Below, in pieces: positions 16,501 to 63,757 of a stretch of 64,000 bases of DNA. Origin of the DNA: Schmidtea polychroa (lineage: Eukaryota); assembly GCA_044892525.1 (NCBI GenBank), contig CM097885.1, positions 34,102,001 to 34,166,000 on the forward strand. Direction: 5' to 3'. The notes beneath the pieces were generated by a model that searched no databases, was not told the DNA's origin, and saw only the letters and a list, made by a program, of their open reading frames with translations. Every line of letters begins with the position of its first letter. The first letter of the stretch is position 1. Made by a program: the position numbers and the translations under genes.

Positions 16501-19500
16501 TTCAATTCTTGTTGTTGTTAAATCAGTATATTTTTTAACACCATCTACATATTTCTTATTAACTGCATCAGCTTCATCAGTTGGAAAAGATAATTCTTTT
16601 ATCTTGTGTCCATTTAAAATTAAATCACCCTTCATTGAATCACCTCTTTCATTAATATATTTATTTTCTGTTAAAGTTAATATTTCTTCTGTATTAAACC
16701 CTGTTTTTATTGTTCCACCACCTCTATTACATGGAATATAAGAACTCATTTATTAATAATTTAAAATGGACGGAGTCCCCTGAGAGGAACTAAACCTGTT
16801 TCAAATGTAAATACATTGAAATCTCTTCTCCATTAAAATCAATCAATTCTCCTTCTTGATTAAGAATTTTAAAATTAATATCCATTATATATTTTCTACA
16901 TAAAGGTAATTAATTTGGAGGATTCATTCTTTCAACTATTTTATATCCCATAGGAACTGTGTTTGAGGGAAAGGAATATAAAACATTTGTTTGTTTACCA
17001 TTATTATAAGAACCTGTTATACAATCGCAATGAATATTTATTGTGTTTGTATTTATTATTTTTATAATATGTTCTGATGTTATTATTTTATCTTCTTTTA
17101 TTGTTATATCCATAGGTTTAAATCCTAAAACTGTGTGAAAGAAACAATTATCTAAAAAACTAATTTTTATATTCTTCAAAGTCATTACACATTTTGAAGT
17201 TGGTATATCCATTTTAATTTTAATACCTTCATTTGTTTTTTTAGAAAGTATATCATTTAAATCTTTTATCTCATATGCCCCAGGTTCTATTGTTATAATT
17301 TCTGGTTTATGCCCATCACGAGTTTGAATAGTAAATTTATTATTATCTTTAGTTATATTAAAAATAGTATTATAAGCACAAAACCATAATAGCCCCAATT
17401 CATAATTTAAATTTTGATCTAATTTAATTGAATCTTGAAAGTTTATAGTAAAGTCTGATTCTTTTGAATTTATAGATAAAGTTCTTGAATATTTATCTGA
17501 CATTATGTTTACCATTTTTTTTAAATTATCTTCCGGAGGGTTGTGAAGCTCCATTTCTTTAGTAGTAAATTCATATAGTAAAAATCCTTATAGTAAAAAT
17601 CCTTATAGTAGAGATTCTAGATCATTATAAATTTCTTGAATTATAGATTCAAAATCCTGTGCATGCCCCTTTCCCTCTCCCTTATTCAATCTATACAAAA
17701 CATATAAACTTAAAATACCACATATTTTAGTATTCAAAGGTTGAACTTGTAAAGAGTTAAAAGTATAACCATTTGGGGAATCAATCGGAGAACCCCTCAA
17801 GAGATAATCTTCAACTTCTTTAGTAGGTTTAATCCCAAAAGAATCAAAGTAGATAGATTTCTTATATATACAAACCCAATGAGATCCTTTTTCATTTGAA
17901 TTTTGATAATTGATTATTATATTCAGGGGACTCTCCAGACTTGATAATTCATCATTCATTAATATTTTAATTTTTAAATTTAAATAATTTGCATAATCTT
18001 TTAAATCAAAATTTGTTTTTGCATTTATTCCAAATGTTTTTAAAAAATCTAATATTGAAGGAGTCATTTTGTATTTTAAAACTTCGTATTTATAACTTCG
18101 TATACTTATTAAATTTATCTTTTGAAATTATTCCTTGTTTTAACAAATCTTTAGAAATCTTTAAAATATCAGAATCTAAATTATTATGTCCTGCTTTCCT
18201 TGCAGCTAATAGTTTTCTTAATTCAATAAAAAGATTGATGGGATTTGGTTTACCACCTTCACTAATTAATCCCTCTCCCTCTGTAACAACATAACCCTTT
18301 TCATTTTTATTTAAATAATTCTTTAAATCTTGAATATATTTTGCTTTAGAACTAGCTCTTATTAATCTTATTAAATTTAAATATTTTTTAATTTCTTCAA
18401 CATCATCTGAAGAATATCCACAAAGTAATCTATAAAAATCATCTGTAAATTCAAAGTCTAAATATTCATTATTATAAACATTTTGTGAATGAATACGTGA
18501 TTTATTTTCTGAATTTGAATATAAAGTAAAGTTTTGTTTATTAATTGTTATTATTTGATATCCTTCAGTATTAGTATTAAATGTGGGTCTAATTGAAGGT
18601 AAATCATCTCTAATTTTAGGATCAACTTTAAGAGCTTTTGTTTTTAAAAACATTTCTTCTTCTTCCACATTAGAAATTCTTCTGCGTTTTCTTTGATTTC
18701 TTTCAGAATGACTTTCAGGATGGTTTTCACTGGATTCTTTTTCTTTATCCTGCCACTCTAGTTCTTTTATTTTTTGTTTTTTATCTTCTAACTCTTTAAA
18801 TTTTGCTTGCTCATTGAAATCTTCCAACTCTTTTATAGCTTTAATTGTTGGCCCCTGTTGTTGTGTTATTACCTCATTTAATATTATAGATTCAGCATGT
18901 TGAGTTGTATCTTTTTTATTATATTTATCTTGTTCTGATTGTAATTTTTTTAAAAGTGCTAATCTTTCTTCATATACCATTTTAATGGTATCAAAAATGG
19001 TATCATAGTTCGAAGGGCTTCAAGTATAATCCTTTACCATTTTTAGTTTTACAAAGGCATCCATTCTTTAAAGGTTTACATATTTTTTTTAAATCTTCTT
19101 TATCTTTTGAAGATAAAGATTCAGATGTAGAAATTTGATTTTTTAAAAAATCATTTAAACCTCTACCTTTATAAGGATCAAGATAGAGACCTTTGCCCTG
19201 AGACTTTTGCCGACTCCCCTCATATGGATTAAGATAGAGACCCTTTCCAACGGACACTCCCCCTTTAGCTTGCCCTACCTTCTTCATTGAATCGATTTCA
19301 GTTTGTAGTTTTTCTTTTTCTAGGTCTGTCTTTTGAGATTCTTTAGCTTTTTGAACTGTAGTTGCAATTCCTCCAGCTATTCCAGCAGCACCTGATAAAC
19401 CAGCAATGATTGCAGGTATTAAAGCAGCTAATGGAAGAATGCCACCTTCTTTAGCTTCGTGGAGCTTCGCTCTAACTTGTTCTTTTACATGTTTTCCAAT

Positions 19501-22500
19501 AAAATATTTTTTACCATCAATTACTACTGATTTATTTTTATTTGAATTTATTAATTCTTGCAAAGATTCTTCAGTTGTCATTTTATAATAAATAAAAATG
19601 GATACTTGGAAACCAATTTTAAATAGACATAAGAGTAAATTTAATAATAAAGTATTTCCTGATAATTTTAGATTATTAATTGTTGGTTCTTCTGGATGTG
19701 GAAAGAATGTACTTGTTTTGAGAATGTTACTTGAAGATGATTTTTTAGATTATAATAATTTAATCTTTTATTCTACGACCATAAATCAACCAGAATTACA
19801 ACTTTTGAAATGTGGATTTGAAAATAAATTAACTAAAAAAGCAATAATTGATATTTTTAAAAATCAACATAGGTGTCCTGAAGAAGTTTTTCAACCTTGT
19901 GATATGGTTGATTGGTATAAGGAAAAGATTTTAGAATCAGATATTAGTAATAAAAATGATTATATTTGTGAAGAAGGGCAGGAGGCAATTCAAGTTTTAT
20001 TCTCTAATAAACCTGAAGATGTTTTACATTGTGATTTACTTCCTAAAGATAAAAAGAATCTAGTTATATTTGATGATGTTGTTAATATGAAAAATCAAGA
20101 GATTCAAAAGAGTTACTTTACACGAGGTCGACATAATAATTGTAATGTTATTTATATATCTCAAACATATTATGCTTTAGATAAAAATTCAATAAGAAAT
20201 AATTCCAATTGTTTTATATTTTTTAAATTAGATCGCCGTGATAAGAATATGATTTATAATGATTTATTTTCAAATGTTGAACCTGATAAGAATATGTTTG
20301 ATATGTTTGTTGATAATCATTGGAAAGAAAAATATAATTATATTTATTTGGATAGAGAAGAAGCTGAAATATGGAAAAGTTTGTTTTAGGGCTTGTCGAC
20401 TTAAAAACCTGTTTTCTGTAGTTCATTATTATAAAATCTACCTAATATTTTTTCATTATTTAAATCAAAGATGCTATATGTTATTGGAGTTGTATAATGT
20501 ATTTTATTTATAATAAAAATTTCATTTGTCCATTTTGCTGTGAATCCTTTTTCAAATTTATTTTTATATTTAAATATTCTTACTCGGTCACCAATTTTAA
20601 ACTTTGGTTTTTCAATAACATCATTTTCAATATTTACCACTTTAATGGTTTCAGGCTTCATGGAAGCATTTAAAGGTGTTAATTTTATAGAACTATGTAC
20701 ATCATTATTATATTCATTTACAATCTTTTGTAACAATTCATTGTTCCATTTTTGTTTTCCAATAGCAGTAAAATATTTCCACATTTTATTTTTTAATGTT
20801 CTATTTAATCTTTCAACTACGACTGCTTTTCCTTCGTTTTCTGTTGAATATAATTTAATATCATTTTCATTTAAAAACTTTGTTATAAAATTCTGTTCCT
20901 TTATCACTCCATAAATATTTTGGAATTCTTTGATGTTCTTCAAATATATTTTCAAATGCTTCTGTAATGGAATATCCTGTTTTATTTTCTAAACACCTTG
21001 CAAAAGCAAATCTTGTATATAAATCTATTACAGTTAAAATTATTTTATATTTTTCAGGGTCTGATGATTTGGGCATAAAGACTAAATCTGCAGACCATGT
21101 TTGATCTTTTTCATGTACTTGAACTTTTAAATATTTTTTATTTTTTCTAAATTCATGGTGTAATTCCTTTGCATATTTTATTTCTGATTCTGTTGGGGTT
21201 TGTAAACTAGCCTTGGATATATTCTCAAGGGATCTTTCAATGTCTGCTTGTTCGATAATCTTTTAATAAGCAACATCTTTTGCTATTCTAGGAAGTCTTG
21301 CACCCATGGTGATCGGACTGTGTCCTAAGCCTATGAAAATTTTACCTTTCATTGCTAATTTAACTAGAGCTCTTTGAATCTTTTCTTGGGTTGATGGATT
21401 TTGGATACTATTTAAATCATGTATTAAATTCACATCTGCAACATGTCTATCTCTAAGATTTGTTGAATTGTATGCAATGTCATGTTTTAAAGCTGCTTGA
21501 TCAATTCTATTTATTGGTTCTTCTCCTTGTTTGGGATTATTATTTTCATCTAATCTAATATCTAATCTTGTTCCTGGTCCGGTGTAGTTGTGTTTAAATA
21601 AATGTCTTTCACCTGGATATTTTTCTGTAGTAAAAGGTTTTAATATTGAAGATGTTGTTTTTGAAGATTGTAGAGCGCCTCCTGTATGTTTTTTAGTTTT
21701 TAAATGACTTGCTTTATGATGTCTTGTAACTTGACAATTACAAGTTTCACATCTCCAATAGGGTTTATTTAAAGACATTTTAAAATGTTAAAATATCAGG
21801 GATTATATCAAGAATCTCCCCTAACATTTTCGATTATTGAAATCTTTCCACCATATAATTTCATTTCTATTTTCTTTTCTTCTAATATTAATGTATATAC
21901 TTTAGCTTTAAAATTAGAATCCTTTGTTACATGAAGTGTAACATCAACATTATTTATAGCTAGACGATCATCTTGATCTGATACATTTATACAAAATATA
22001 GAATATAAATTTTTGAAATCTTCTAAACTTAATTGCGGTTCAACTTTGAAATCATAACATGTTTCAATATAATTTAGATATGGGAATATGTTTTCATTAT
22101 TTTCAATATTAAATTCCATTCTATTTATTGGATAATAAGAACTATTTAATTGAATTTGGATTGTTTTTAAATTATCATCTCCAATCTTTTGAATAAATAG
22201 ATTGTTATTTTTTTGGAAAGATGAATCTGTTTCTTTAAATCCAATCAAGATATATCTTGGTCGGTATGCTAAATTTGCTACCTTTATAGAATATGTTGAA
22301 CCCTCTGTCATACTAAATTCACTACAGATTCTATTTAAATAATTTACATTTATAGACTTGTTGGAATTTAATCTTTCAAGGAGTTTAATCTCAGAATGTG
22401 GGTTTAATGTCCATTCAGGTATATGTAATTCAAGTGTTGATAATTTTAATTTAGCTTTTGTATCAACAGCTCCATAGAACAATCTTTTATCACCTTCTAC

Positions 22501-25500
22501 TCTATTACAGATGAATTCTATAAAAACATTATGAAGTATACAATTATAGTTTTGAAGGAATCCAAACAAGTGTTTTAATTCAAAATAACCTTCAAATTTT
22601 TTAGATTTATAAAGTTCAGCTCTTTTATGGTAACCATGGTTTACATCTAAACCATCTTTATCTAAATCCCCTTTATTAACATCAGGAATCCAACCTGTTA
22701 ATTCACCATATTCGTTTTTATAATCACAACCAGTCAAAATAAAATTTAACATTGTAGAATATACTCCCGGATGCAAAACAGTTTCAATTTCTGATGATCC
22801 TAGTTTTAATCTCATGTTGGAGAATAAATTTGGAAAGAAATTATTTTCTAGGGTTATATCTTTGTTTGCTTCAATTTCTAATTCGATTTTATAATATAAT
22901 TTGGCATTACAAATATCTATAGGGTTTGATGTTTGAAGAGATTGAAAAACTATATCACCCCTACGATTTAAGTTTGCAATAGATCCTGAAGTTGGGGAGA
23001 TTTTAAGTACATCGTTTTTCTTGATTTCGTGAGTAAATTCTTTATTATAATCAAGATTTAATTTATTTTTTTCTTGAATTTTAAGATTTATATTATTCAT
23101 TTTTATATATTAAAATTTACACACACAAAATAGGATTAATTAAATATATTATGTAAGCCATTATAGCGGAGTGGGAATAGGCTTCAATTTTATCACCGGG
23201 AGTACCGGGTTCAATTTTCGATTTTGGTCAATTTTTTTCGATATTTTTTTTCAACGGAATCTGATTTTAGTATATATTTAAATTTTCAGATGGATCTGAG
23301 TGGTAGTTGTCGAGAAAATGAATAATTAATTATTAATTTCATCAATAAATAGTCACACATTAACAACTTACTTTATATTGAGTATAGCTCTAATAGCTTA
23401 GTGGTAATAGCACTCAACTGCATTGCCAATACCAATGGGTTCAAATCCCATTTCGGTCATTTTTTTTCAAATATTTTTTTTAACGAAATATTGATCAGCA
23501 TACTCGATTTAGTACTTGTACAAATTTTTAAGGAGATTGGTCAACGGCAACTCTTGGAAATTTAAGATCAAAAACGTTTTAACTACCAAAAATTAATATA
23601 TCCAATAAAAAAATATTTATAAAAATGGATGAGTTAAAAGAAAGAATGAGAAATGAATTGAATGAAGTTAAACATAAGAGAATGAAAAGAAGAGAAGAAG
23701 AACCATTAGAATACATCAAAGAGTTGATGGTAGATAATGAAAAGTATCGACATTTTTATATGAAGGTTGTAGATGTTGCTGATATAAGATTGAAGAAAAT
23801 GAAACAATTACAGGAAAGAGTTAAAGAACTTGAATCGATTATTTATAGTCTAAAAAATGACAAAAATTCAAACCTTGATGGCGCAGTGGGAATAGACTGG
23901 CACAGTGGTTCAAATGGATAGTGGTTCAAATCACATCTGAGGTTAGTTTTTTTTCAACATAAAATAATATTAAAAATTTGAAAATAATATTGAAAATAGT
24001 GTGGGTATCTTATATTTATAAAGTACTTGTATATTTTATTTTATTTATTTTATTTTATTTTATTTTTTTATTAATTAATTATTTTTTAAACATAAATATG
24101 AAAAAAAAAATATTGAAACGGGTGATGGTGGCGAACCCGTAATTATCGCCACCTGTCTTTCGAACACCCCCGGATCGATCCCGGTAATGTGCACATTTAT
24201 TTCTCGGTTGTTTTCGGACCTCTTTCGGATTCGCTTTCGAATTCATTTGTACTTTCGAGCAGCACACTTAAAACGCCGATGAAATCGTATTCGAGCGAGA
24301 AGCGAATAATAAGGTGTGCTGCTATTATCGAATTGATTCTGATGTATGAGTCTGGCCAGCTTGTATATTGGAAGAGATTTGATAAACGAAAGAGGTTGAT
24401 AAATAAAAAAATGATCCGGATCAAAAAAACTGTTAAAGGGGACAGTGATAAAAAAAAAAAAAATACCACTGTCCTCTCAGAGCAGTTTTACTATTTTTCA
24501 TTTATTTTTTAATTTATATAATTTAAAATCAATAATCTGATAAAGATCAACTCCGGAGTTTGATTGCGATCAAAAGTAGTGTGTATATAGCCCTATCCCA
24601 AATAGCCCTCTAACTTTTTCATAATGCCATTTTCTTTTCTATTCTCTTTTTAGTTTGAAGCTTTTGAGTTTGAGGCTTTAAAGATTAAGGGTGGTTGTTG
24701 TTTAAAATATGGGGTTAAAATACTATAAAAACATAGGTTTTATGTTGTTTTTCTAATGGTTTAAGCGTAATGGAGGTATGTTTTTGTTGGGAGGGCTGTT
24801 TGGGTTGGGTATATATACACACTACTGTCGTGTATAAAGAGAAAAATGATGAACAACATGACAAGATATTATTGTTGCAAATTACCTAGATTCTTCATAT
24901 TTATCATTGCAGTCAGTCAACTCAATTCAAGCCTTCATTTATGTTGTAATAATTGTTCATGGTTTGTAATAATTAATTGATTGTCAATGCACTTTGACAG
25001 TTTAGATATTTATTGATTAAAAAACTCAATGAGTCAGTAACTGTCGACTATTAATTTTAATGAAATACCCACCAAAACGAATGATATAAAAATTAAATTT
25101 AAACATTATTTGCAGAAACTAATTTTGATAAAACCAATTTGTTTATAAATGTTTTTTATCTCTTCCATCGAGCAAAATCAATATTTCCTTAAGAATTTAT
25201 CAAAAATTTAATAATTTCATGTGTTGTCTGATCTGTGTTACGGTGCAAATTATTTGACAGTTGTCTTGAACTTTTGGAATTTCAAATATTATTCTTGGGA
25301 AATTAATCATTGAAATTCCAGAAGTCTGAATCAACAAATTTGACTATATATATATATATATATACATACATTATTTTTACTAGAAATATTGTAATATAAA
25401 TATTTTTATAACAACAATATTATATCAAATAATAATTCTAAATAAAGAAAGGAAACTTTAATAAGTATTTGAAATTGTAAAATATTCATTAATTTCCGAA

Positions 25501-28500
25501 TAACTCTTTAAAATTAATTTTGTTTAAACCAATCAACACATACTTTCTAATATTCATTGTAAGAATTTAAAATATTTTGACATTTATTATATCCAATTTT
25601 ACTTTTAAGTTAATCTCTAAAGAAAATATAAATGTTTTAATCCAGTATTCCCCAAACATACAACCCATGTGTATCTTTTTCACATATTTTTTAACACTTC
25701 CTACCTATTAAAAGAAAATTTCTTGGATATACTATTAAAAAACTACTAATACTTTTTCCCATATGAGGTTAAGAAATAAAAAATTCTTAAATTTTGATTT
25801 TAGGGAAAATATTCTTTATAAGAGTTACTGATTGACTTTAAACACCTAAAACAATCTTCAAATAAATTTTCATCGAATTTTTAAAATAAAATATTGATTA
25901 TTTAAAAATTTTATAAGAAAATATTGCAGTTTCTTAAAAACAAATTTAATCATGTTAGTTTTGATAAACTATAAACAAAACATGAAAATTATTTTTTATA
26001 ATATAATGCAAATCTGTTTATTATAATTAAATGAATTAATCATTAATTATTAATGAGATCATAGTATGCATATAGCTAATGGTTTTAATGATCGGTGCTT
26101 GAATATAAAGAAAAGAATAAAATAAAATTTTTTAATCAAGAATAATGAAACGGATGATGTTGTTTATGTCCGGATTAAATTACTTTATTATTTGGTTCCT
26201 GATCTAATTTTAATCTTAGATGTGGCTCTACATTGAGTATTCTATTTCTATTTTTGTGATAATATAAACGAAAGTGGAAAAGGCAAATTCTCACAGATAG
26301 GAAGTTGGGAAAAGTAATATGAATTTCAGAACATTTTCAATTAATATAGGTTAAACATTTAATACTTCTGACCAAAATGACGCTAATCTATGTTCTGTAT
26401 ATCTATCTTTCAAGAATCCATATGAGGATAATTTTAACAATTGTTCTAATCCAATTTCATAAACCTCCTGACATGCATGTTGAAGCAATATTAAATGAAT
26501 ATCCTATACATTCAGCATTTTTCTCCAATCCAGGCAAATAATGCTATAGATTTAATTGTGATTTAATATAAATGCTATTTAATATTTCCCACATTTTCAC
26601 ATGAATACAACTGCCTGAATTTATCTGTAATTCATCAAGGAAAGATTTGAATTCTCCATTAATAACTCTTCAATGGCACAAATTTAATTTTTCTATCATA
26701 GCTTATACTTTATCTTGAACGTGAAACATTGAAACGTTTTTACCTTATAATGGCAAATTAAGACTGTTCAAGACAGAAAATATATCAACTAAATAGACTA
26801 ATTTATTTTATCCTTTCCAATCACGTAAATAGTATAGGCACTTTTTCAATTCTCCTCGAAGTTCAAACAATCGATTTAAAGTTTTCCTCTTGTTAGGCAA
26901 CGAGCATTTGTATGGCCGAGAAGTTAAATATGGATACTTCCCATTTCTTCACACATTTCTAAAAAATGTCTTAATATAATTAAAATTTTTTATTACTTTC
27001 ATCCAAAAACGTTTTTTAAATCTGGTGACGTACTACATGTTGCCAAAATGTTTTAAAATGTTTTCTTAGCAGATTCTTAAGAAGCGCAAAGTGACTCAAA
27101 GTCATTAAATTGATCATTTCATGCTTGTCGGTTGGAATCATATTCCTGTAGTTTTTCAGATGTAAGTGATTCAGTTTTTACCCAACAATTCATTTCTAGG
27201 ATCGATAAAATAATGTTAAAATTACAAAAACGATACACTAATCATAATTTTGAATAAAAATTAATGGAAAAAAACAATAATAGTGTAAGGAGTTAGTAAA
27301 CCTCTATATAACATTATTATGGTTAAATGGTAGAAGTGAGATCAGTTAGTAGAAATAATTATTTCTGTTAAATTTGTATATTTAAATTCTATATTAAATT
27401 ATATCATATTATATTAAATTATATTAAATTAAATCAATTAAATGTATGACCAGTAATTACATTAATATTAATAATTATCACGCCTCGGTGTTTAAATATT
27501 CTAGTAAACGGCACAATTTTTGAAGTTGTTATAAAAATAAATGCTTGAAGAAGACTTGAATTTAATTGCGTCTAACATGGCGACCACGACCACGGATTTA
27601 TTGATAAGCAGACTATTACCTGAGAAATTTCACAAAGGCGATGATTTAGAAAATTTTATCAAGGATTGTCAAAGGTTTTTTGGCGCGACAAAAACAACAA
27701 TTAGGATGCAAGTAATATTAACTACAACATTACTTGACAGATCGCTAATGGAAGATTATGAAGCAGCCGAAGGAAAAACTATGGAAGAGAAACTTCGATA
27801 TGCATTTTCAAAACCGACATCATTAATGGATGATCTAAAAGAAGCTTTGAGTTATGAACAAGGATCAGATTCAGCCGAAACTTTTATAGAGAAAATTAAA
27901 AAGATTACAAAGAAATTAATAGCGCACAAATGGGATGAAGAAGAAATAGAAAAATGCCTGCTTACAAACTGTGTAAGAGATCGAGAAGTTAAAAAAGAGA
28001 TCGAGATGAAAGATTTGAAAACAGTAGTATGATTGGAGCTCCCCCGGCCAGGAGCTCCCCCGGCCACATATACCCCCTCCCCCCCCCCCAAGAAAAAAAA
28101 ATTTTTTTTTAATTTTTTGTTTTAATTAATTGGCCGGGCGGGCTCACACTTTTTTTCATCCCAAAAATTAATGTTCCTGCCAACAGATTTTATTGACCGA
28201 TACCTCATCTTAAAGCTCAGTCCAAGACCTTTCGAATGAGCTATAGGTATCATATATATCTTTAATAGTTTTAATGTTATTAACAATTGATGACCACCAT
28301 CTTTTCAACGTTAAATTATTATTATTTTCCAAAATATTATTAATTGGCCGGGCGGGCTCACACTTTTTTTTCATCCCAAAAATAATGTTCCCACCAACAG
28401 ATTTTATTGACCGATACCTCATCTTAAAGCTCAGTCCAAGACCTTTCGAATGAGCCATAGAAGGTATCATCATCATTATTATTAACAAAGAGATTGACTC

Positions 28501-29127
28501 ACCCAATGACTCACCCAACGATGTCTAATATTTTTAGAACGATGCCAAATATTTTTAGAATGGTGCCTAATATTTTTAGAACGATTACATCATACTTTTA
28601 GAACGATGCCTCTTATTTTAGAACGATGTCTAATATTTTAGAACGATGCCTATTATTTTTAGAATGATTACGTCATATTTTTAGAATGATGCCTAATATT
28701 TTTAGAACGATGCCTATTATTTTTAGAACGATTACATCATACTTTTAGAACGATGCCTAATATTTTTAGAATGATGCCTAATATTTTTAGAATGATGTCT
28801 ATTATTTTTAGAACGATTACGTCATAATTTTAGAACGATGCCTAATATTTTTAGAATGATGCCTAATATTTTTAGAACGATTACGTCATACTTTTAGAAC
28901 GATGCCTAATATTTTTAGAATGATGTCTATTATTTTTAGAACGATTACGTCATAATTTTAGAACGATGCCTAATATTTTTAGAATGATGCCTAATATTTT
29001 TAGAACGATTACGTCATACTTTTAGAACGATGCCTAATATTTTTAGAATGATACCTAATATTTTTAGAACTAATAATCTTTGTTTTAATTATCGATTACA
29101 TATTAATTTAATTTGTTTAAATCGTTG

Positions 29128-29166
<39 letters not shown>

Positions 29167-32100
29167 ATTAGTCAAAAACCTAAAATAATTTTTACACACT
29201 AAGTTATGGGGAGAGAATTATTATATGTTTGCAGTATTCTGTGTTTGCCTTTACAGGAAGTTGTCAATAAGGAGCGATAATTTTATATACACATACCTTG
29301 TTTAACATGGGTGTATATACTCCTAGTCTATCCGACAAAATATTCTGTCCCCCTATGGGTACTGCTCACAAAATTACTGGTAAAAATATTCAAGACAAAA
29401 CTTTCTAAATTCTAAATATTATTCTTTAAATATACACTAAAATTTATTAACACATTCACATTCATCATCTCCACAGTTCATAACATTTTCAACAACATGA
29501 TCTATACAATCCCTATATACACACGGTTCAGTATCCGTAAATTCCTCCATAGGTTCATCAATTTCTTGAATGCTTTCCTCATCATCTTGAGTGTTTTCTT
29601 CATCTGTTTCATCAAATTCCGAATCTTCACTCTCTGCTACCCAGTCTATATTTAATGCGTTTGTAACAGATAATATATCCGCCATTTTCACACCAGATAT
29701 TTCTGCTAATTTTTCCAATAAAAAGTTTATTATAAATTCTAAATATTAAATAATTCGATAATTAACTAATCATATTAACCTTTTTCTGTAGTCATTATTA
29801 GTATTTTAAAACTATAGTATATATTTGTTTATAGAAAATATAGAATATAAGCGAAAACAAATATGACTAAATACATTTATTAAATACAACATTAAAATAA
29901 CTGTGAAAGTCTAGCAGACATAATTTTCCAAATTGGAGAATACACATCATTATTATCAACTTTATATCCTTGGATTGTAATTGTTATATACCAATTTTCG
30001 TTTTCTTTGAAACTGATTTCATCAAAGGAATCATAAAATTTTGCATATCGGTTGTTGAAAAATGCATTTTGATTGCATGATAGATTCGTATTCAACCTTT
30101 TGAAAACATCATCTATGGTTTTAATATCTAACATTGAAAGCGTGCCGGTTAAGAATTGAAATTGGGTAGGAATTAGCTTGATCGGTGACACCAATTTCAT
30201 ATTGATTTCTTCTTTTAAAAAATACATTTTGTAGTTGTGGAACATTTGAACAGGTTGTACAAGTTCTGGAACTACTTTTGGTTTTTCAGTGCTTGAAATT
30301 TTCTTGGTCATTGTGAATTATGATTAAAATGAAATGGTACAGGGTTTTTATACCTATGACTATTGTTTATCATCCAATCAGATTGCAGTATGTTTTTGTT
30401 TTAATTGAATGATAAATAATTAATTAAGTGATAATAAAAAATCTAAAAATTCTTTTCCTTCAATTATTGATTTAATTTCAGATATGATATTATCAACTAT
30501 ACTTTTGTAATCAATATTTTTTATTCCAAGAATTACTATCTTACCGCTAGCGAATATATTTACACACATAGGGTTATATTTTATATATCTCAAAGCTGGA
30601 AATAATTCTGGTTCATAAAAGCATGGTATTAATTTAGCTAATTTATTTAAATTACAAGAAAAACCTATATCGGAAGTTACGGTTATCGATTGTATTTCTA
30701 AATCATAAACATTATATTCACTAGCTTTGATTATTTCCTTACACCCCATAATTCTACATTTACCAGTTTTGAAATATATTATTGGATATTTATTACTTCT
30801 ATTGATAAGTTGTTGTGGTTTCCCTATTGGAAATACCATTTTTGATACATCAGTTTTTGCCCTGTAATTTATATTTGAAAGCATTTTAATGAAATAATTT
30901 TAAAAACTTTGATATATATAGGTATTTAAAAACAGAGTTCATTTAAATTATCAATATAAACAATAATTATATAGTTTAAATTTAAAAAATGGAATTACGA
31001 AATGATGCAGTATACCAAATCGTTGGTCCAAGTGGTAGCGGGAAAACTTTATTTGTTTGTAAATTACTAAAATCAAATTTGTTTAAAACAAAATTCAACA
31101 ATATTTATTGGCATAGGGGCGCCGACGAAGAACACGGATTGACGCAATCAAGTTTCTGTCAGTTGAAAAACATGAAAATAGTAAAGGTCTTTGATAAAAA
31201 CTGGTCAAGTCGTTTGAAGAAAGATGATGTCATCATTATCGATGATTTGTATCAAGAAGCCAATAAAGAAAAGGACTTTAATAATTTATTCACAAAAATC
31301 AGCAGACATGTTGGTGTAACAGTTATTTTCATAACACAAAATCTATTTCATCAAGGTGGTGCACATCGAACACGTAATTTAAATGTACAATATTTAGTTA
31401 TTTTCAAGAATCCTAGAGATGCAACTGTCATTGATTTTCTTGGACGACAAGCATACCCTAATAACCGTAATTTTCTTATCAGTGCATTTCAAGATGCCAC
31501 GAAAATACCGCATGGGTATATATTTCTCGATTTCACACAACAATGCCCTGATGATATACGGGTAAAAACGGATATTTTCAACCCAAAAGGTGCCATGGTA
31601 TATAAACAAAGTTCAAAACAAAGTTGAAAACATATAAATCATGTTTTCAAAAACAAGGATATCGGGTAAAAAACAACCAAAAGTTCCACCAACAACTAGT
31701 TATACTCCATCTAAAGAACTTATTACAGAAAATTTTCCTGCAATGAATCTTATTTCGAAAAATCCTAAACCAAAAAGTAAAACCACTAAGAAAGTAAAAG
31801 TTGTTAAAAATCATCGGAGTTTCCCGTTTTTCAATACATTGTTAAAGGCACCAAGTATGAAAAGAAACAGTATTTTGCAATCATTTCCAAATTATGTTGT
31901 CGATGATTTACTCGATATTATACTTAAAGTAGTCAAAGGCAAGATTAAAATCAGTAAATCTAAAAAGCAATTATTGAGTAAACATAGGAAACCTTTGCTA
32001 TCATTAGTAAATAATAAAAATCGTCAACAAATGAGAAAAATTATATATAAACAACAAGGGGGATTTATCGGTGCATTGATACCTTTAGCAATATCATTAT

Positions 32101-35100
32101 TAGGTGGAATAATAGGAAGTCGATCATAAACAATGGGTGCTAATCCTTCATTACCAGACATTAAATTTAATATTAAATCTTCTTGTTGTAATGGAGAAGA
32201 TTTGGACGAACCCGGAAGACGAAGCCGGTTTTGGTGGAGTGGCAAAATTAAGGAAAAGAGTTCCGAATTCGAAAAAGGAAACACAGAAGTGGTTATCAGA
32301 CCAGCTTGCGTACAGTTTGAACAAACCAATGCGGAAACGATTCCCAACAAGAACATATAAAACATATGGAATAAATGATTTATGGCAAATGGATTTGATG
32401 GAGATGATACCCTATTCGAAAATTAACAATGGGTATAAATATATTTTAACATGTATTGATGCAATAAGTTTAATTGTTCACACATATTTAAAAGTTTGGA
32501 TATTGTGAACAATTATACTTTAAATATTTAAGTAACACATCAAGTTTATCAATATATAATTCGTCAGCAAAGGTGAATGATTCTTCAACTTCATTATTAT
32601 ACGACACTGAAATTTCGATTTCTTCTCTCATTACACTGTTTGCTTCAAATAGATCAAAGCGTAATAAATATTCTGTTTCCATAACTTCATTTTTCAACTT
32701 ATTGCAACCCATTCGTCTGGCATCTTCAATATATTCGAATGTTATTGTAAATGGTTTAAAATCACAACTGATATTTAATCCATCCTTGTAAAACATAGTG
32801 CAATGCTGATCTAATATTTGATTCGGAATATGATATGTTTTATCATAATTACTGATAATAAAGATACCACTACATGTTTTCATAGCATTCCTTTTGAAAT
32901 CAATCTTACATTGACTATAAAATGGGAATGTATTGTACACGAATGTAAAATCTTGCAGTGCAACTTCCCAGTCACCATTTAAAGAAATCGGATTCTGGAG
33001 ATTGACCATGAATTTACTGGCTTGATTATCTGGATGAATAAGCGGGCAACTATTGCTTGGTAAAATAGTATAAAAATTCACTTTACTAGGTCCTTTTCTG
33101 ATATCCATGATGGGTTTTGATAACCATGCCATTTGACATAGTATTGTTTATCCTTGCCTTTATTTTTAGTTTTCAATATCTTCTGAATTCTAAATACTTT
33201 TGGGGGAGGAATAACTTGTAATTCCTGCTCATAAAATTTTCCTTGTACAATATTGTTATCATTGTCTTTGATGACATACATTACAGGATTCTGTTTAGTA
33301 TTTATTTTTGAAATTACAAAGACTTCATCACTCCAATTCGTATCAAAATTTTTAATAAATGGTGATGCACTAATTTTACTAATTCTAACATGGTCACCTA
33401 CTTTATATTTCGGTTTTGTAATTTTTTCAGGTTTTTTAGAATAGATTGTTTTTGACGTGATATCAATCGGCCTTAATCCATTCAGTCCTTGATGTGATGA
33501 GTGATTATAACTGGTTATTATTTTTGGTAAAACCAATACCCATTTTTTATTACCTTGATGCACGAATAATTTCTTTAATCTATCTCTCAAAGTTCGGTTA
33601 AATCTTTCAACATGAGCAGCTTTGTATTGAGAATGTACTGAGTAATGGTTTATTTTCATTTTATTGAGGATTTGCTTGACTTTACTGTTGTAGAATTCTT
33701 TACCTAAAATAATAATAATAATAATAAAAATAATAATATTAATACCTAAATCAGTTTGCAAGTTTTTAGGATGTCCATCTTTAAATAAATGATTAACAGC
33801 TTTGGACATTTCATCTGCAGATTTTGCCTTGACGGGTATTGCTCGGGCAAACCGACTGAATACATCAATACATGTTAAAATATATTTATACCCATTGTTA
33901 ATTTTCGAATAGGGTATCATCTCCATCAAATCCATTTGCCATAAATCATTTATTCCATATGTTTTATATGTTCTTGTTGGGAATCGTTTCCGCATTGGTT
34001 TGTTCAAACTGTACGCAAGCTGGTCTGATAACCACTTCTGTGTTTCCTTTTTCGAATTCGGAACTCTTTTCCTTAATTTTGCCACTCCACCAAAACCGGC
34101 TTCGTCTTCCGGGTTCGTCCAAATCTTCTCCATTACAACAAGAAGATTTAATATTAAATTTAATGTCTGGTAATGAAGGATTAGCACCCATTGTTTATGA
34201 TCGACTTCCTATTATTCCACCTAATAATGATATTGCTAAAGGTATCAATGCACCGATAAATCCCCCTTGTTGTTTATATATAATTTTTCTCATTTGTTGA
34301 CGATTTTTATTATTTACTAATGATAGCAAAGGTTTCCTATGTTTACTCAATAATTGCTTTTTAGATTTACTGATTTTAATCTTGCCTTTGACTACTTTAA
34401 GTATAATATCGAGTAAATCATCGACAACATAATTTGGAAATGATTGCAAAATACTGTTTCTTTTCATACTTGGTGCCTTTAACAATGTATTGAAAAACGG
34501 GAAACTCCGATGATTTTTAACAACTTTTACTTTCTTAGTGGTTTTACTTTTTGGTTTAGGATTTTTCGAAATAAGATTCATTGCAGGAAAATTTTCTGTA
34601 ATAAGTTCTTTAGATGGAGTATAACTAGTTGTTGGTGGAACTTTTGGTTGTTTTTTACCCGATATCCTTGTTTTTGAAAACATGATTTATATGTTTTCAA
34701 CTTTGTTTTGAACTTTGTTTATATACCATGGCACCTTTTGGGTTGAAAATATCCGTTTTTACCCGTATATCATCAGGGCATTGTTGTGTGAAATCGAGAA
34801 ATATATACCCATGCGGTATTTTCGTGGCATCTTGAAATGCACTGATAAGAAAATTACGGTTATTAGGGTATGCTTGTCGTCCAAGAAAATCAATGACAGT
34901 TGCATCTCTAGGATTCTTGAAAATAACTAAATATTGTACATTTAAATTACGTGTTCGATGTGCACCACCTTGATGAAATAGATTTTGTGTTATGAAAATA
35001 ACTGTTACACCAACATGTCTGCTGATTTTTGTGAATAAATTATTAAAGTCCTTTTCTTTATTGGCTTCTTGATACAAATCATCGATAATGATGACATCAT

Positions 35101-37157
35101 CTTTCTTCAAACGACTTGACCAGTTTTTATCAAAGACCTTTACTATTTTCATGTTTTTCAACTGACAGAAACTTGATTGCGTCAATCCGTGTTCTTCGTC
35201 GGCGCCCCTATGCCAATAAATATTGTTGAATTTTGTTTTAAACAAATTTGATTTTAGTAATTTACAAACAAATAAAGTTTTCCCGCTACCACTTGGACCA
35301 ACGATTTGGTATACTGCATCATTTCGTAATTCCATTTTTTAAATTTAAACTATATAATTATTGTTTATATTGATAATTTAAATGAACTCTGTTTTTAAAT
35401 ACCTATATATATCAAAGTTTTTAAAATTATTTCATTAAAATGCTTTCAAATATAAATTACAGGGCAAAAACTGATGTATCAAAAATGGTATTTCCAATAG
35501 GGAAACCACAACAACTTATCAATAGAAGTAATAAATATCCAATAATATATTTCAAAACTGGTAAATGTAGAATTATGGGGTGTAAGGAAATAATCAAAGC
35601 TAGTGAATATAATGTTTATGATTTAGAAATACAATCGATAACCGTAACTTCCGATATAGGTTTTTCTTGTAATTTAAATAAATTAGCTAAATTAATACCA
35701 TGCTTTTATGAACCAGAATTATTTCCAGCTTTGAGATATATAAAATATAACCCTATGTGTGTAAATATATTCGCTAGCGGTAAGATAGTAATTCTTGGAA
35801 TAAAAAATATTGATTACAAAAGTATAGTTGATAATATCATATCTGAAATTAAATCAATAATTGAAGGAAAAGAATTTTTAGATTTTTTATTATCACTTAA
35901 TTAATTATTTATCATTCAATTAAAACAAAAACATACTGCAATCTGATTGGATGATAAACAATAGTCATAGGTATAAAAACCCTGTACCATTTCATTTTAA
36001 TCATAATTCACAATGACCAAGAAAATTTCAAGCACTGAAAAACCAAAAGTAGTTCCAGAACTTGTACAACCTGTTCAAATGTTCCACAACTACAAAATGT
36101 ATTTTTTAAAAGAAGAAATCAATATGAAATTGGTGTCACCGATCAAGCTAATTCCTACCCAATTTCAATTCTTAACCGGCACGCTTTCAATGTTAGATAT
36201 TAAAACCATAGATGATGTTTTCAAAAGGTTGAATACGAATCTATCATGCAATCAAAATGCATTTTTCAACAACCGATATGCAAAATTTTATGATTCCTTT
36301 GATGAAATCAGTTTCAAAGAAAACGAAAATTGGTATATAACAATTACAATCCAAGGATATAAAGTTGATAATAATGATGTGTATTCTCCAATTTGGAAAA
36401 TTATGTCTGCTAGACTTTCACAGTTATTTTAATGTTGTATTTAATAAATGTATTTAGTCATATTTGTTTTCGCTTATATTCTATATTTTCTATAAACAAA
36501 TATATACTATAGTTTTAAAATACTAATAATGACTACAGAAAAAGGTTAATATGATTAGTTAATTATCGAATTATTTAATATTTAGAATTTATAATAAACT
36601 TTTTATTGGAAAAATTAGCAGAAATATCTGGTGTGAAAATGGCGGATATATTATCTGTTACAAACGCATTAAATATAGACTGGGTAGCAGAGAGTGAAGA
36701 TTCGGAATTTGATGAAACAGATGAAGAAAACACTCAAGATGATGAGGAAAGCATTCAAGAAATTGATGAACCTATGGAGGAATTTACGGATACTGAACCG
36801 TGTGTATATAGGGATTGTATAGATCATGTTGTTGAAAATGTTATGAACTGTGGAGATGATGAATGTGAATGTGTTAATAAATTTTAGTGTATATTTAAAG
36901 AATAATATTTAGAATTTAGAAAGTTTTGTCTTGAATATTTTTACCAGTAATTTTGTGAGCAGTACCCATAGGGGGACAGAATATTTTGTCGGATAGACTA
37001 GGAGTATATACACCCATGTTAAACAAGGTATGTGTATATAAAATTATCGCTCCTTATTGACAACTTCCTGTAAAGGCAAACACAGAATACTGCAAACATA
37101 TAATAATTCTCTCCCCATAACTTAGTGTGTAAAAATTATTTTAGGTTTTTGACTAAT

Positions 37158-37199
<42 letters not shown>

Positions 37200-40100
37200 C
37201 AACGATTTAAACAAATTAAATTAATATGTAATCGATAATTAAAACAAAGATTATTAGTTCTAAAAATATTAGGCATCATTCTAAAAATATTAGGCATCGT
37301 TCTAAAAGTATGACGTAATCGTTCTAAAAATATTAGGCATCATTCTAAAAATATTAGGCATCGTTCTAAAATTATGACGTAATCGTTCTAAAAATAATAG
37401 ACATCATTCTAAAAATATTAGGCATCGTTCTAAAAGTATGACGTAATCATTCTAAAAATATTAGGCATCATTCTAAAAATATTAGGCATCGTTCTAAAAG
37501 TATGATGTAATCGTTCTAAAAATAATAGGCATCGTTCTAAAAATATTAGGCATCATTCTAAAAATATGACGTAATCATTCTAAAAATAATAGGCATCGTT
37601 CTAAAATATTAGACATCGTTCTAAAATAAGAGGCATCGTTCTAAAAGTATGATGTAATCGTTCTAAAAATATTAGGCACCATTCTAAAAATATTTGGCAT
37701 CGTTCTAAAAATATTAGACATCGTTGGGTGAGTCATTGGGTGAGTCAATCTCTTTGTTAATAATAATGATGATGATACCTTCTATGGCTCATTCGAAAGG
37801 TCTTGGACTGAGCTTTAAGATGAGGTATCGGTCAATAAAATCTGTTGGTGGGAACATTATTTTTGGGATGAAAAAAAAGTGTGAGCCCGCCCGGCCAATT
37901 AATAATATTTTGGAAAATAATAATAATTTAACGTTGAAAAGATGGTGGTCATCAATTGTTAATAACATTAAAACTATTAAAGATATATATGATACCTATA
38001 GCTCATTCGAAAGGTCTTGGACTGAGCTTTAAGATGAGGTATCGTCCAATAAAATCTGTTGGCAGGAACATTAATTTTTGGGATGAAAAAAAGTGTGAGC
38101 CCGCCCGGCCAATTAATTAAAACAAAAAAATTAAAAAAAAAATTTTTTCCCGGGGGGGGGGGGGAGGGGGTATATGTGGCCGGGGGAGCTCCTGGCCGGG
38201 GGAGCTCCAATCATACTACTGAAAACATCAGATGAAATAAAAGCGACAATAAAGAAATTAGAAAAGGTAAACAAAATTATGGGCCATGTTAATGTTGTGA
38301 AGACTTCACCGGTTGTTCAAAACTACAGAAGCTACAGAGATGTTGCTCAAAGAGGAATGGTAAACGGAAATAATAATTTCAACCAACGAAACGTCAGTAA
38401 CCGACAATTGGAATGCTGGACATGCAAGAAAATTGGTCATGTGAGTCGAGAATGCCAAATGAAAAAGAAAATTACGTGTTTTGCATGCGGAGTTGAAGGC
38501 CATGTACGGCGAGAATGTTCAACGATTCAATGCCAGAGATGTCACTTACGTGGACATAAGGAGATTGACTGCTATACAAATTTGGAAAGAAGGAAGTTTC
38601 AAACTAATTCAAACATGAGAAACAATAATTATTATGCCCATCGAACCACAAGCTATCAACAAAAGATCAACAATCCAAGAAGAACAATTGCAGCAATTGA
38701 ACCTAATGATGAGACGATGCCATTGGAGTATTCAGACGATGCAGAAGACAAATATGAGGAGATTCAGCACCCAAAAGTACATGCTTCGACACGGGAGGCA
38801 ATGATCGGAGCAATATACTAGGTAATTTTGATATTGATGTAAATATTGGTCATAATAATTTTAATAATGTAAATAATCCTTATTTTTATAATAATGTAGA
38901 ACCTTTATGTAATAATATTTGTAATTTTAAAAAGTTTCCTTTAAATAATTTTAAATGTTATAGTTATTTTAATGCTGATCGATCTTTAATAAATAATAAT
39001 AATAATAATCCTAAGAATCAAGAAGAGTATAGTGAAATTAAAGAAGCAGAATATAATAATAAAATAGTAAATGAAAAAGTTTATAAATTTATTAAGAAGG
39101 CAGAAGATAAATTAGAGAGAAAGGAAATTGGGTGGATTAATGAAATATCAGAGGAGCAAAATATTTTCACTAAAGATGAATGGAAACGACCGAAATTGAG
39201 TTATGACAAAATGCAAGGTAGACCGAGTACAACTCTTGAAATTCAGGGTTATAGAATGGAATGCTTACTAGATACAGGAGCAAGAGTAAATGTAATGGCA
39301 GAAGCAGTTGTGGAAAAATTAGTGAATGTGAAAATCATAAAAACAGATGAGATGTTAAGATGTGCAAATGATAGTAAATTAGAGACAATCGGAAAAATAT
39401 ATATTGATGTTAGAATTGGTAATATGGAAAGAAAAATAACATTTATAATAGTTAAAAATATTGTTCCAGATATAATAGGCGGAGTGGAATTGCAGAAAGA
39501 GTTTGGAATTGAATTAAACTACATCAAGCAAAATGAAGAAGGATATAATGAATTTATATGTGAAATAGAAGCTAGATTTGGGGAAAAGATTACAGATAAC
39601 GAGAGATGTCAAAGAGCAATAGAAATTCTAAGATTAAACGAAAATAAAAGACTGTTAGAGATTGTTAAATACAATAAAAGTGTTTTTATGGCTAATAACT
39701 GGGATATCGGATGTACTGATTTAATTGCACATAAAATCATCACAAAAGAAGGGCCAATTATGATAAAACCCAGAAGACAACTCATCAATTTAGAGGAGAA
39801 AATAAATGCTGCTATAAAAAATTTAGAAAATAATGATATCATAAGAAGATGTAATTCACCTTGGAATACGCCGTTAGTATGCGTGTGGAAAAAAGACAAA
39901 AAAGATATCAGACTTTGTTTAGATTTTAGACAGCTTAATAAGATTACTGAAAGACAAGCTTTTCCTATGCCGAATGTAGAAGAAAGTCTAGATACATTAC
40001 ATGGATCTAAGTACTTTAGTTCTATAGACCTTGGGAACGCTTATTATCAGGTGAAATTGGACATAGAATCGCAAGAAAAGACAGCATTTTCTACTAAAGA

Positions 40101-43100
40101 AGGACAATTTTGTTTTAATAGAATGCCTTTTGGCATTGCGGCGGCACCGGGTACATTCCAAGAATTAATGACAAAAATATTGAAAGATCTATGGAAAGAA
40201 GGAGTTATGGTGTATTTAGACGATATTTTAATTTTTACAAGAACAATTGAAGAACATTACAATGTGTTTGGAAAAGTTCTAGAGAAAATAAGGGAAGCTA
40301 AATTGAGAATCAACCCAGAAAAATGTCAGTTATTAAAGAGCGAAGTAAAGTTTTTAGGGCACATTATTAACAGTCAGGGGATTCGGACAGATCAAAGTAA
40401 AATTGAGGCTATTAAATCATTTCAGGGGCCTAAGTGTATAAAGAATTTGAGAAGCTTTTTAGGTATATGTAACTATTATCGGAGATTTATTAAGGAATAT
40501 GCAACAAAATCAAGAGCGCTAGAAAGCATATGTGGAAGCAATAGTGAAAAAATAATCTGGACTGAGGAATGTGAGAAAGCTTTCGAAGAAATGAAAATGG
40601 CGTTGACTACAGCGCCAATTCTCGTATTTCCAGATTTCAAGAAAGAATTCATATTAGATACAGACGCAAGCTTTGATGCAATTGGAGCTGTATTATCACA
40701 AAGAGATGAAATGGGGCATGAACACGTTATTGCATATGGATCGCATGCAATGAGTAGCCATGAAAGAGGATATTGTATAACACGAAAAGAGCTTTTGGCT
40801 ATATATTATTTCTGGCGCCATTTCAACCATTATTTATACGGTAAACGGTTGGTTTTGCGCACTGATCATAAAGCAATAACTTTTATGTTAACGACAAAGC
40901 AGCCGATAACAGCACAGTTCCAAACGTGGATAAATTACTTGAGCAGTTTAGACATAAAAATGGAGTTCAGAAAAGGTACGGCGCATACGAATGCAGATAT
41001 GCTGTCTAGAAATACATGCGGCAAATGTGTACAATGTTTGATGAACCATGATAACCCCAAATCAGGGCGATTTAAAACTAGATTGTTAACATTGATGACC
41101 GAAAATAATGGAAATGAATGCAAAGAGATAATGCAGAAATACAAGATATAAAAGATCAAATAAATGAAAGGAAAAATAATAAATATATATTAAAAGGAAA
41201 TATTATCTATACCAATCAAAACAAAATATGGATACCAGAAACAAAAAGACGAGAAATGATTAAGGAAACACATTTATTATTATGCCACGCAGGAGTAGAA
41301 AAAGTTATGAAATATATTTGGAACAATTTTGATATGTAAGATTTGCTAAATGAAGTAAAAGAGACTATTTCAATATGTGAAGCATGCCAGAAAAACAAAG
41401 TTTTAACTACAAAGTCAAAAGAAAAAACCCAAGTAATTCAAGCTTCAGAACCTATGGAGAAAATATACATGGATATTTGCGGTCCATTAAGATAAACCTT
41501 CAGAGGAGAAAAATATATTTGTGCAATAATCGATCATTACAGTAAATACATATCTCTAACTCCTATTAGAAAGCAAGATGAAAATACAATAAAGGCAGTT
41601 TTGTTAAATAATTGGATATTGAAATTTGGAGTCCCTAAGGAACTACATGTTGATTGTTGAAAAAATTTCGAAGCAAGTAGCATTAAAGAACTAGCAAAGG
41701 CAGCAGGAATTGAGTTGATATTTTCGAGTCCGTATCATCATAATACTAATGGTGTAATTGAAAGACAATTTCGTACTATAAGAGACTATATTAATGCATC
41801 ACTCAGAGAAGGAGTTAAAAAAAGCTGGGCAGAATTAATACCTGATATAGAATACGTTTTAAATGCGACAGCTCAAAAAACTACTGGAGTGAGTCCAGCA
41901 GAAATTATTTTTGGAAGAAAGATTAATAGATCGCAATGGCATAGTAATAATGAAGTGGATAGAAATGAAATCATGCGGAAATTAGAGGCTAAAAGACAGC
42001 AAGCGAAAGAAATTGGCACAACTAGGAACTTAGAAGTGGGGGACAAAGTATTGGTGAAACAAGAAATTAGAAACAAAGATCACGAGAGATATGAAGGACC
42101 ATACACAGTAATAAAACGAAATCATGAAAGAAGTTATTTATTAACAGACGAAAACGGAAGAAAAATAACGAGGAATATAGAAAAGTTAAAGCATTTTAAA
42201 GAAGGGGGGATGTAAGGAGTTAGTAAACCTCTATATAAAATTATTATGGTTAAATGGTAGAAGTGAGATCAGTTAGTAGAAATAATTATTTCTGTTAAAT
42301 TTGTATATTTAAATTCTATATTAAATTATATCATATTATATTAAATTATATTAAATTAAATCAATTAAATGTATGACCAGTAATTACATTAATATTAATA
42401 ATTATCACGCCTCGGTGTTTAAATATTCTAGTAAACGGCACAATTTTTGAAGTTGTTATAAAAATAAATGCTTGAAGAAAACTTGAATTTAATTGCGTCT
42501 AACAAATAGTACATCAAGAAATTCAATAGTAAAATAAACTTACATGGTATTTGTGAAAGTAATTAAACAGAATTAGTATTTAATTTCCAGTTTTAAATAG
42601 ATTTAAATAATATGCTAAAAGTAAATAATAAAATTATAAATTAAAAATTATAAATTAAATATATTTAAGAATGATCGAAAATTAAAATATGAAATATTTA
42701 TTGAATACTTATGTACGAATATTCCCTATTCAATAATTAATTCATGCTTGCGAAAATATTCTCAATCCTATAAACAGAGATTGCTTAAATAAGACAGATT
42801 TTGTGTTGTTTTCATAAATATAGTTTTGTTTTGTTTTGAAATATTATAAATGTTATTAATTCAAGAAATCTAACATCTAATAGAATGACTATTATTTTGC
42901 AATAAACATGCATATTGATTTAAATATTTTAGAAAAGTAATATTTGTTATATTTACCTTCTATGTAATTTAAATACTATAAAATATTATTTTTATTGTAT
43001 TTATTTAAAAGCTTGACTGTGAATCAATAAATATATCGATGTTTTATATAGTCAAAAAACATCGATATATTTTCTGATTCATAGTCAAGCTTTTCAATTG

Positions 43101-62644: not shown

Positions 62645-63671
62645 TATTAAATCACATGTAAAAATAGAAATAATGATCGACAAATAAATACTTTGATGTC
62701 GGAGAAGATTCTTCGTATGAGGATTTGATTTTCTAAATATTAAATTAAATATTTATGCTATATTTTAAATTTGATATGTAGCTATTTTGATATGTTAACT
62801 ATTATATGCTTGAGTGGGTCTTTTAGTTTCTAGTTCAAATGTTATTATTTTATAATACTTGGATTGAATCCTTATCTAGAGAACAAGAAATTCCAAAAAT
62901 TCTGAATTCTTGAAAGTGACTATTTATCAATATTTTAAGCTTCTTTACATGAATATATTAAAACATTGATGATTACCAATACATTACTGAGTCATTTTAT
63001 TTGCTGTTAGGTGGATGTTATGTTATTTGACCGGTTTATTGGAAGCTTTTCTTACATAGATTCAAGATACTCCAAACGAAATTAATATATCTTCATTGTT
63101 GAGTTTCTGTGAATTTTAATTTTAAATTGGACTTGATCTTGCGATTAAATATTTTTCTTGATTCTTCTTTAAATTTATGACTAGAAACTTGCACATTTCA
63201 TTGTATATAAATCGATAAAATATCAAACCAAATTTTAAAATGACCCAATCAATATATATTAGAATAAATTTTCCAAACTATAATAATTCAGACACTAAAA
63301 TAAAGGATTATGTGATATATAAAAAGAAAAAAAATGTGGTTCTAAATTACAGGATTTAATAGATCGGCCTCAGCGAGCAGTTTAAGCAATTAGCTTTATT
63401 TTATGAATTTCAGTATGAATTTCAATGATGTGTATCCACTGGATCTTTTCTACTCTGATCATAAGTGCTTGTGTCATCGTTGATCATAGTATGTAGATAT
63501 CGCATGAACAATTGAGACAAATGTTCACCAGCCATAACCACATCATATGAAATAAATCCAAGTTAAATTTCATATTTCAATTATACGCATTGCTCAAACG
63601 AAGCCGAAAAAGTGCCATAGCATTATACAGGCGATGATTTTGCACTCAAGGCTTTTATCTGTACCGTTTTG

Positions 63672-63673
<2 letters not shown>

Positions 63674-63757
<84 letters not shown>
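63674..63757 (+). repeat. (TTA)n microsatellite
   Basis: Directly visible. Confidence 0.97.

Follow-up and report, generated by a model that had tools for sequence, protein, structure and literature searches.

The integrase gene at this locus raises the question whether a 42-nt insert close to its second catalytic aspartate is a spliceosomal intron, and, if so, how the intron was gained and whether its removal serves as a switch. The gene lies in a stretch of 64,000 nucleotides (the window) from a host that is, by its sequence, an AT-rich animal, with Piezo and otopetrin genes in the window (Pfam).

The gene is carried by a Polinton derivative (Table 1). In the features by which such elements are recognised, a DDE integrase (here with a chromodomain), terminal inverted repeats, a 6-bp target duplication and an A32-like packaging ATPase, the derivative resembles the animal Polinton/Maverick (adintovirus-like) elements; it differs from animal Polintons in that this copy is palindromic, is without polymerase and major capsid genes and has an integrase with a probable intron. 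Pfam recognised no polymerase or major capsid ORF between 28023 and 38220, and we do not count the derivative as a full Polinton/Maverick member. It was inserted recently, since its two arms and likewise the two LTRs of the gypsy-type element that hosts it are nearly identical (Table 1). The palindrome is near-perfect: genes for a TBP-fold protein, the packaging ATPase and a protein of 162 codons are present in both arms, the TBP-fold gene (35440-35904, plus strand, and 30420-30884, minus strand) being arranged head-to-head with the ATPase gene, and the left arm contains only the first 93 integrase codons. The insert is located in the single-copy centre between the arms, so that the window offers no second copy of it. 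The other ORFs of the derivative show no break.

In the window there is also a second, distant Polinton (9466-24817) with polymerase, ATPase, PLA2-like ORF and double-jelly-roll capsid. A direct repeat of 275 nt (9199-9473 and 24827-25101) borders this element in place of a short target duplication.

On the minus strand, an open frame of 351 codons (34133-33078) encodes a retroviral-type DDE integrase, as indicated by a Pfam rve match; the match to a C-terminal chromodomain is weak. The best fold matches of the modelled integrase are foamy-virus intasomes (E 6e-14), and the catalytic residues D68, D128 and E176 are invariant in the 110 aligned rows. Within this frame the insert (33745-33704) begins 4 nt past the D128 codon and separates D128 from E176 by 48 residues, as compared to 34 in the relatives. 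A 76-codon ORF starting with MGAN (33964-34194, minus strand) overlaps the start of the integrase gene in another frame and has no Pfam match.

Table 1. Position of the insert, of the integrase gene and of the surrounding element in the window (strand as given; a dot where none applies).
Feature	Positions	Strand	Basis
Probable spliceosomal intron: 42-nt GT..AG insert with ATT-repeat filler	33704..33745	-	Absent from 120/120 homologues
Direct repeat, copy 1 (exon end and donor)	33743..33750	-	
Direct repeat, copy 2 (acceptor and exon start)	33701..33708	-	
Integrase part upstream of the insert, with Asp68 and Asp128	33746..34133	-	Pfam rve; invariant columns
Integrase part downstream of the insert, with Glu176 and C-terminal chromodomain	33078..33703	-	Pfam rve_3 and Chromo, both below cut-off; invariant columns
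Asp128 codon (second catalytic Asp)	33750..33752	-	Invariant in 110 rows; aligns with foamy-virus integrase Asp (weak match, E 0.006)
ORF of 214 codons that follows the integrase gene and overlaps its end	32488..33132	-	No Pfam match
A32-like packaging ATPase of the element	34697..35335	-	Pfam Pox_A32
Short TBP-fold gene of the element	35440..35904	+	Pfam TBP, E 1e-15
Right arm, inner part	33855..37196	.	3339/3342 nt identical to the inverted left arm (29128-32469)
Palindromic non-autonomous Polinton derivative, 10.2 kb	28023..38220	.	AGTAGT ends, 6-bp target duplication GAAAAC, long inverted arms
Gypsy-type LTR element hosting the Polinton derivative	27284..42504	+	LTRs 292/294 nt identical

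The insert starts with GT, ends with AG and is in phase 1, splitting a Gly codon after its first base; when read through, it adds 14 residues, for the most part Ile. An 8-nt direct repeat, TTTAGGTA, spans both junctions and permits nine registers of the insert, of which only one yields GT..AG. The description in the initial annotation of an in-frame GT..AG insert with an 8-nt direct repeat is borne out by the sequence, and its filling by (TTA)n holds in so far as the interior consists of ATT/TTA repeats (GC 0.05, i.e., 95% AT), with two interruptions. A further AG, likewise in frame, follows 6 nt past the acceptor. Judged by eye, there is no clear branch-point motif in the insert and none common to the six short host introns described below. 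Microsatellites of the ATT/AAT type are also found elsewhere in the window (29128-29163, 37161-37199, 38992-39009, 58542-58559 and 63675-63755), both arms of the element included.

The window itself provides the yardstick. Its six short host introns measure 40, 39, 49, 42, 46 and 46 nt; the likeness in size to introns of 40, 42 and 46 nt, which had been pointed out before, was right for all three on re-measurement. Three Piezo introns are verified by Pfam profile positions that run on across the exons (1-26, 43-97, 99-150). The introns of 39-49 nt separate exons of Piezo and otopetrin, which are found at 51752-62733 (minus strand) and 4217-5108 (plus strand). The short host introns end with TTTAG in five of six cases and start with GTA in two of six, at a GC content of 0.10-0.29; donors are loose (GTG, GTA, GTT), and the three long introns all have GTA. 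By its length and its TTTAG end the insert fits into this class, with an interior that is more repetitive, and its donor is no weaker than those of the host. No other donor in nine Polinton ORFs of the window opens a GT..AG stretch of 36-51 nt whose GC content is below 13%. The 8-mer TTTAGGTA is no rarity in the window (6 matches vs. 3.7 expected), and 8-nt repeats spaced 36-51 nt apart occur at seven places in the nine ORFs.

Alignment with related Polinton integrases, which the initial annotation had suggested for mapping the presence or absence of the insert, revealed contiguous flanks in the full-length homologues and in the loci that span the site. All of the 120 best full-length homologues (of 2272 matches) are without the insert and have the short Asp-to-Glu spacing, a count that is biased against genes split by an intron with a stop, which would not be recorded as full-length proteins. 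At the DNA level 37 metagenome loci were found, 32 of which span the site, and the 32 are uninterrupted; in five of them the single TTTAGGTA site is already present. The three genome-file loci that span the site are uninterrupted as well, and a fourth enters unrelated DNA. Locus L041 (72% identity) was considered as an intron carrier and rejected: its match ends at residue 130, and unrelated DNA without a GT donor follows straight after the Asp codon. The distant integrase of the second Polinton has a plain frameshift near 20887 and the motif without insert. No relative was found in the viral contigs scanned, and a search with the C-terminal part for a split half yielded no close one among the best 120 of 1013 matches.

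Absence from the relatives would also be expected of an insertion that is never spliced. A repair or slippage event private to a dead, non-autonomous copy, with GT..AG as a by-product of duplicating AGGT, agrees with the finding that no homologue has the insert at the DNA level and that the element is without polymerase and capsid matches; the repeat by itself is enough to produce GT and AG, and the insert was picked for its intron look from among very many decayed repeats, a selection of look-alikes that is real. Two further points count against the intron. Since the copy is non-autonomous, its integrase need not work, and a length of 3n without an in-frame stop would, on analysis, make the insert one of a rarer type of intron; of the new 3n introns of Daphnia covered in the accessible part of a study (PMC4202315), 25 of 27 contain stops. 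We nevertheless regard an unspliced insertion as doubtful. A host-like size and host-like ends seldom arise together from random insertion, and a random repeat-flanked insertion is rarely GT..AG because AGGT is present in only 15 of the 1006 8-nt windows of the integrase gene (1.5%). In the relatives there is no ATT seed at the site that slippage could expand, for which reason pure slippage was discarded; so was pure tandem duplication, since the repeated part of the 42 nt comprises only 8 nt and the remaining 34 have no match in either flank. Finally, two sister proteins depart from the conserved sequence at the very same base.

These two proteins came from a search for short proteins, which gave 31 matches. 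P0122 (77% identical in the N-terminal half) leaves the conserved sequence directly after the Gly of the site and ends with the tail K-I-I-I; P0123 (76% identical in the N-terminal half) leaves it after the same Gly with the tail N. Both tails would fit a read-through of a GTAA donor, and that of P0122 also ATH repeats like the filler in the window. Contig ends or frameshifts could also account for the two tails. P0125 and P0137 just end at the motif, and P0153, too, begins or ends near it. P0121 (92%) jumps from the site to the last 14 residues; it was rejected as a spliced form and is read as a DNA deletion, the window having no AG at the corresponding place downstream. P0121 and L041:256-270 are both broken at the motif; breaks or assembly points may be frequent there.

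A tree was calculated from 55 N-terminal halves, namely the window, 46 of the top 47 matches (P0035 was omitted for its length) and 8 of the 31 short matches. The window and P0121 (100/99) and P0122 and P0123 (100/96) form two pairs, which together with an uninterrupted branch containing P0005 make up an unresolved group of seven rows (91/78). This topology would allow a single gain of an intron before the split of the window lineage from that of P0122 and P0123.

Of 146 new representatives inspected at the site, 109 read through, 15 stop aligning and 22 are unclassified. Ten proteins of one distant family (P0199, P0221, P0231, P0235, P0236, P0239, P0244, P0247, P0262 and P0292; 76-100% alike) depart from the integrase at the codon that corresponds to the insert site. 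The residue that follows always has a codon beginning with G, and the proteins then run into later integrase sequence or into other Polinton genes. They may stem from gene models in which a donor at this position is used and would then count, as a group, for one weak hint at a donor-like site; the pattern could also be a gene-model artefact or an adenovirus-like shared first exon.

How the insert fares in other copies of the family can be asked from sequencing runs, 20 of 24 of which contain the stretch or part of it, none of them recorded as RNA. Contigs of four runs were aligned to the stretch; the family is very abundant, with 55,536 records from run X1 alone. At the insert the four runs show no gap row and none of the 15 joints displayed, with the repeat letters there skipped and 114 weaker joints hidden, and no contig was seen that bridges the insert. 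The same alignment caught single deletions with 24-30 letters a side elsewhere, and no gap and no joint was dropped at skipped repeats; the silence at the insert may still be technical, the repeat letters being skipped. In run X10 a contig that ends at 33697 and a second one that starts at 33754, the edges of the insert, fully account for the depths. Together this gives weak to moderate reason to think that most copies of the family carry something at the site. Runs X9 and X10 were considered as RNA and discarded as such: they cover the non-coding arm, and their longest records are 19 and 14 kb, so that they are probably DNA and permit no inference on splicing.

Between copies of the family 40 differences (of 368) were displayed, 26 of them in the integrase gene, where 17 are synonymous, 9 are not and none creates a stop; synonymous ones make up 6 of 12 upstream of the insert and 11 of 14 downstream of it. 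That the differences in the integrase are mostly synonymous is a sign of constraint at the level of the family, not of this copy.

An error of assembly or sequencing would be invited by the low complexity of the filler, and no contig was seen to bridge it. Such an origin is hardly credible in view of the exact intron-like ends and size, of arms that are near error-free over 3.3 kb and of relatives that have no repeat at the site to be mis-expanded.

The 8-nt repeat had been taken to indicate that the intron was gained by duplication of AGGT. The repeat itself is there; as a proof of duplication it fails, since an intron of the host type at this place often yields it. With TTTAG acceptors and GTA donors in the host and a single TTTAGGTA site already present in some uninterrupted relatives, the repeat is no guide to the mechanism: an intron of any origin at the site would show it roughly a quarter to half of the time. 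In line with this, repeats at exon ends are, according to the accessible part of a review (PMC3443670), equally common at old and new introns of Drosophila.

The same consideration weakens the case for a young spliceable intron confined to this copy or to a small subfamily, made by the Daphnia route, i.e., by the repair of a staggered break, with 8 nt duplicated and the gap filled by AT-rich repeats. Such an event would account well for the perfect repeat and the filler of 95% AT, and it would suit the recent insertion of the element (see the arms and LTRs in Table 1); new introns of Daphnia are AT-rich, and 33 of them have exon-end repeats of 4-12 bp, as stated in the part of PMC4202315 available. 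The repeat, however, is expected for any host-type intron at the site, P0122 and P0123 depart at the same base, and the contig alignment displayed no uninterrupted junction of the family (repeat letters being skipped and weaker joints hidden). We therefore consider a gain as recent as this rather unlikely.

Taken together, the insert is probably a real intron, an assessment to which its GT..AG anatomy, its host-like size and ends and its absence from the relatives all contribute; of the intron reading in the initial annotation these parts stand, and splicing itself is, from the sequence, probable. Somewhat less firmly, we favour a constitutive intron of the host type that was gained once and is probably inherited rather than private to this copy. 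Splicing, sharing among copies, and the time and the mechanism of the gain are what we infer in the following. The host spliceosome would recognise the short AT-rich GT..TTTAG stretch and remove it as a U2-type intron from the integrase pre-mRNA, and the mature message would then encode the Asp-to-Glu spacing of the relatives. A single gain would have used an AG|GT site that the Leu-Gly-Lys codons behind the second catalytic Asp already offered, probably in the ancestor of the window family and its sister lineage; the interior would since have become mostly ATT microsatellite, a type common in the window. No second copy of the insert was found among the repeats of the 64-kb window, and the insert is without inverted ends.

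In addition it had been proposed that splicing acts as an on/off switch, because the unspliced message still yields a full-length, probably inactive integrase. This proposal we find unsupported. The precedent would be the IVS3 intron of the P element (PMC7776569, as far as the text is accessible): the spliced message would give the active integrase, and the retained one a full-length protein that is inactive or inhibitory. The retained form is indeed in frame, and when modelled its core is confident (pLDDT mostly above 90) and intact, and the insert forms a low-confidence loop (residues 131-144) just behind the strand that bears D128; low confidence is to be expected there, the alignment having only gaps at the insert. 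From the model, impaired catalysis of the retained form is plausible. The ATT repeats, however, have no stop in any frame of this strand, so that the open read-through needs neither selection nor an adaptive cause. A full-length retained product is not conserved, P0122 and P0123 ending 1-4 residues past the site, and the donor is no weaker than those of the host. We therefore regard a regulated switch of the IVS3 kind as very improbable. Equally improbable is its extension to a high-copy Polinton lineage present in more than one host, with an inherited intron whose splicing is controlled and a retained integrase that binds the element ends and cannot integrate.

How does a constitutive intron in this gene compare with what is known? 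The core ORFs of intact vertebrate Mavericks are intronless (PMC8097293, accessible part). No spliceosomal intron is mentioned for such genes in the available portions of a paper on nematodes (PMC10748475), the adintovirus paper (PMC8502044), two papers on Polinton-like viruses (PMC12220804, PMC11296320) and a review (PMC6431247). An intron in the integrase of an animal Polinton was not found in the literature searched, which comprised main texts of mostly openly accessible papers.

Spliceosomal introns within Polinton-type elements are known from dinoflagellates, whose Maverick-Polinton-like proviruses contain introners (PMC11957031, from the text available). According to that source, these are multi-copy, derived from transposons, found in protists and mostly acquired after integration, whereas the insert is a 42-nt microsatellite without a second copy in the window. 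In being short, very AT-rich and provided with a short repeat at an AG|GT site the insert resembles the new introns of Daphnia pulex (PMC4202315) and the models of gain at AGGT sites (PMC3443670), both as far as these texts are accessible; the Daphnia introns differ in that they reside in host genes, that their splicing has been shown by cDNA and that most of the 3n cases have stops, the insert being located in a mobile element. Ginger1 transposases (PMC2836005, accessible part) are likewise of the integrase type and interrupted by ordinary GT-AG introns; Ginger1 is a cut-and-paste DNA transposon and not virus-like, and the likeness concerns the presence of introns. With IVS3 of the P element (PMC7776569, accessible part) the insert would share that its removal is required for an active transposition enzyme. 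Retention of IVS3, for which regulation has been shown, leads to a shorter repressor of 66 kDa, whereas retention of the insert would lead to a longer protein, and its regulation is hypothetical.

An intron would be unusual in genes described as intronless, and with introns of Polinton-type elements already known in dinoflagellates the finding is of moderate value. If the inherited intron is real, the lineage would be transcribed in the nucleus and would depend on the host spliceosome to integrate. Surveys based on ORFs would misjudge such copies as broken or miss them, and a family that is very abundant in one genome would be a convenient population in which to watch the gain or the fixation of an intron.
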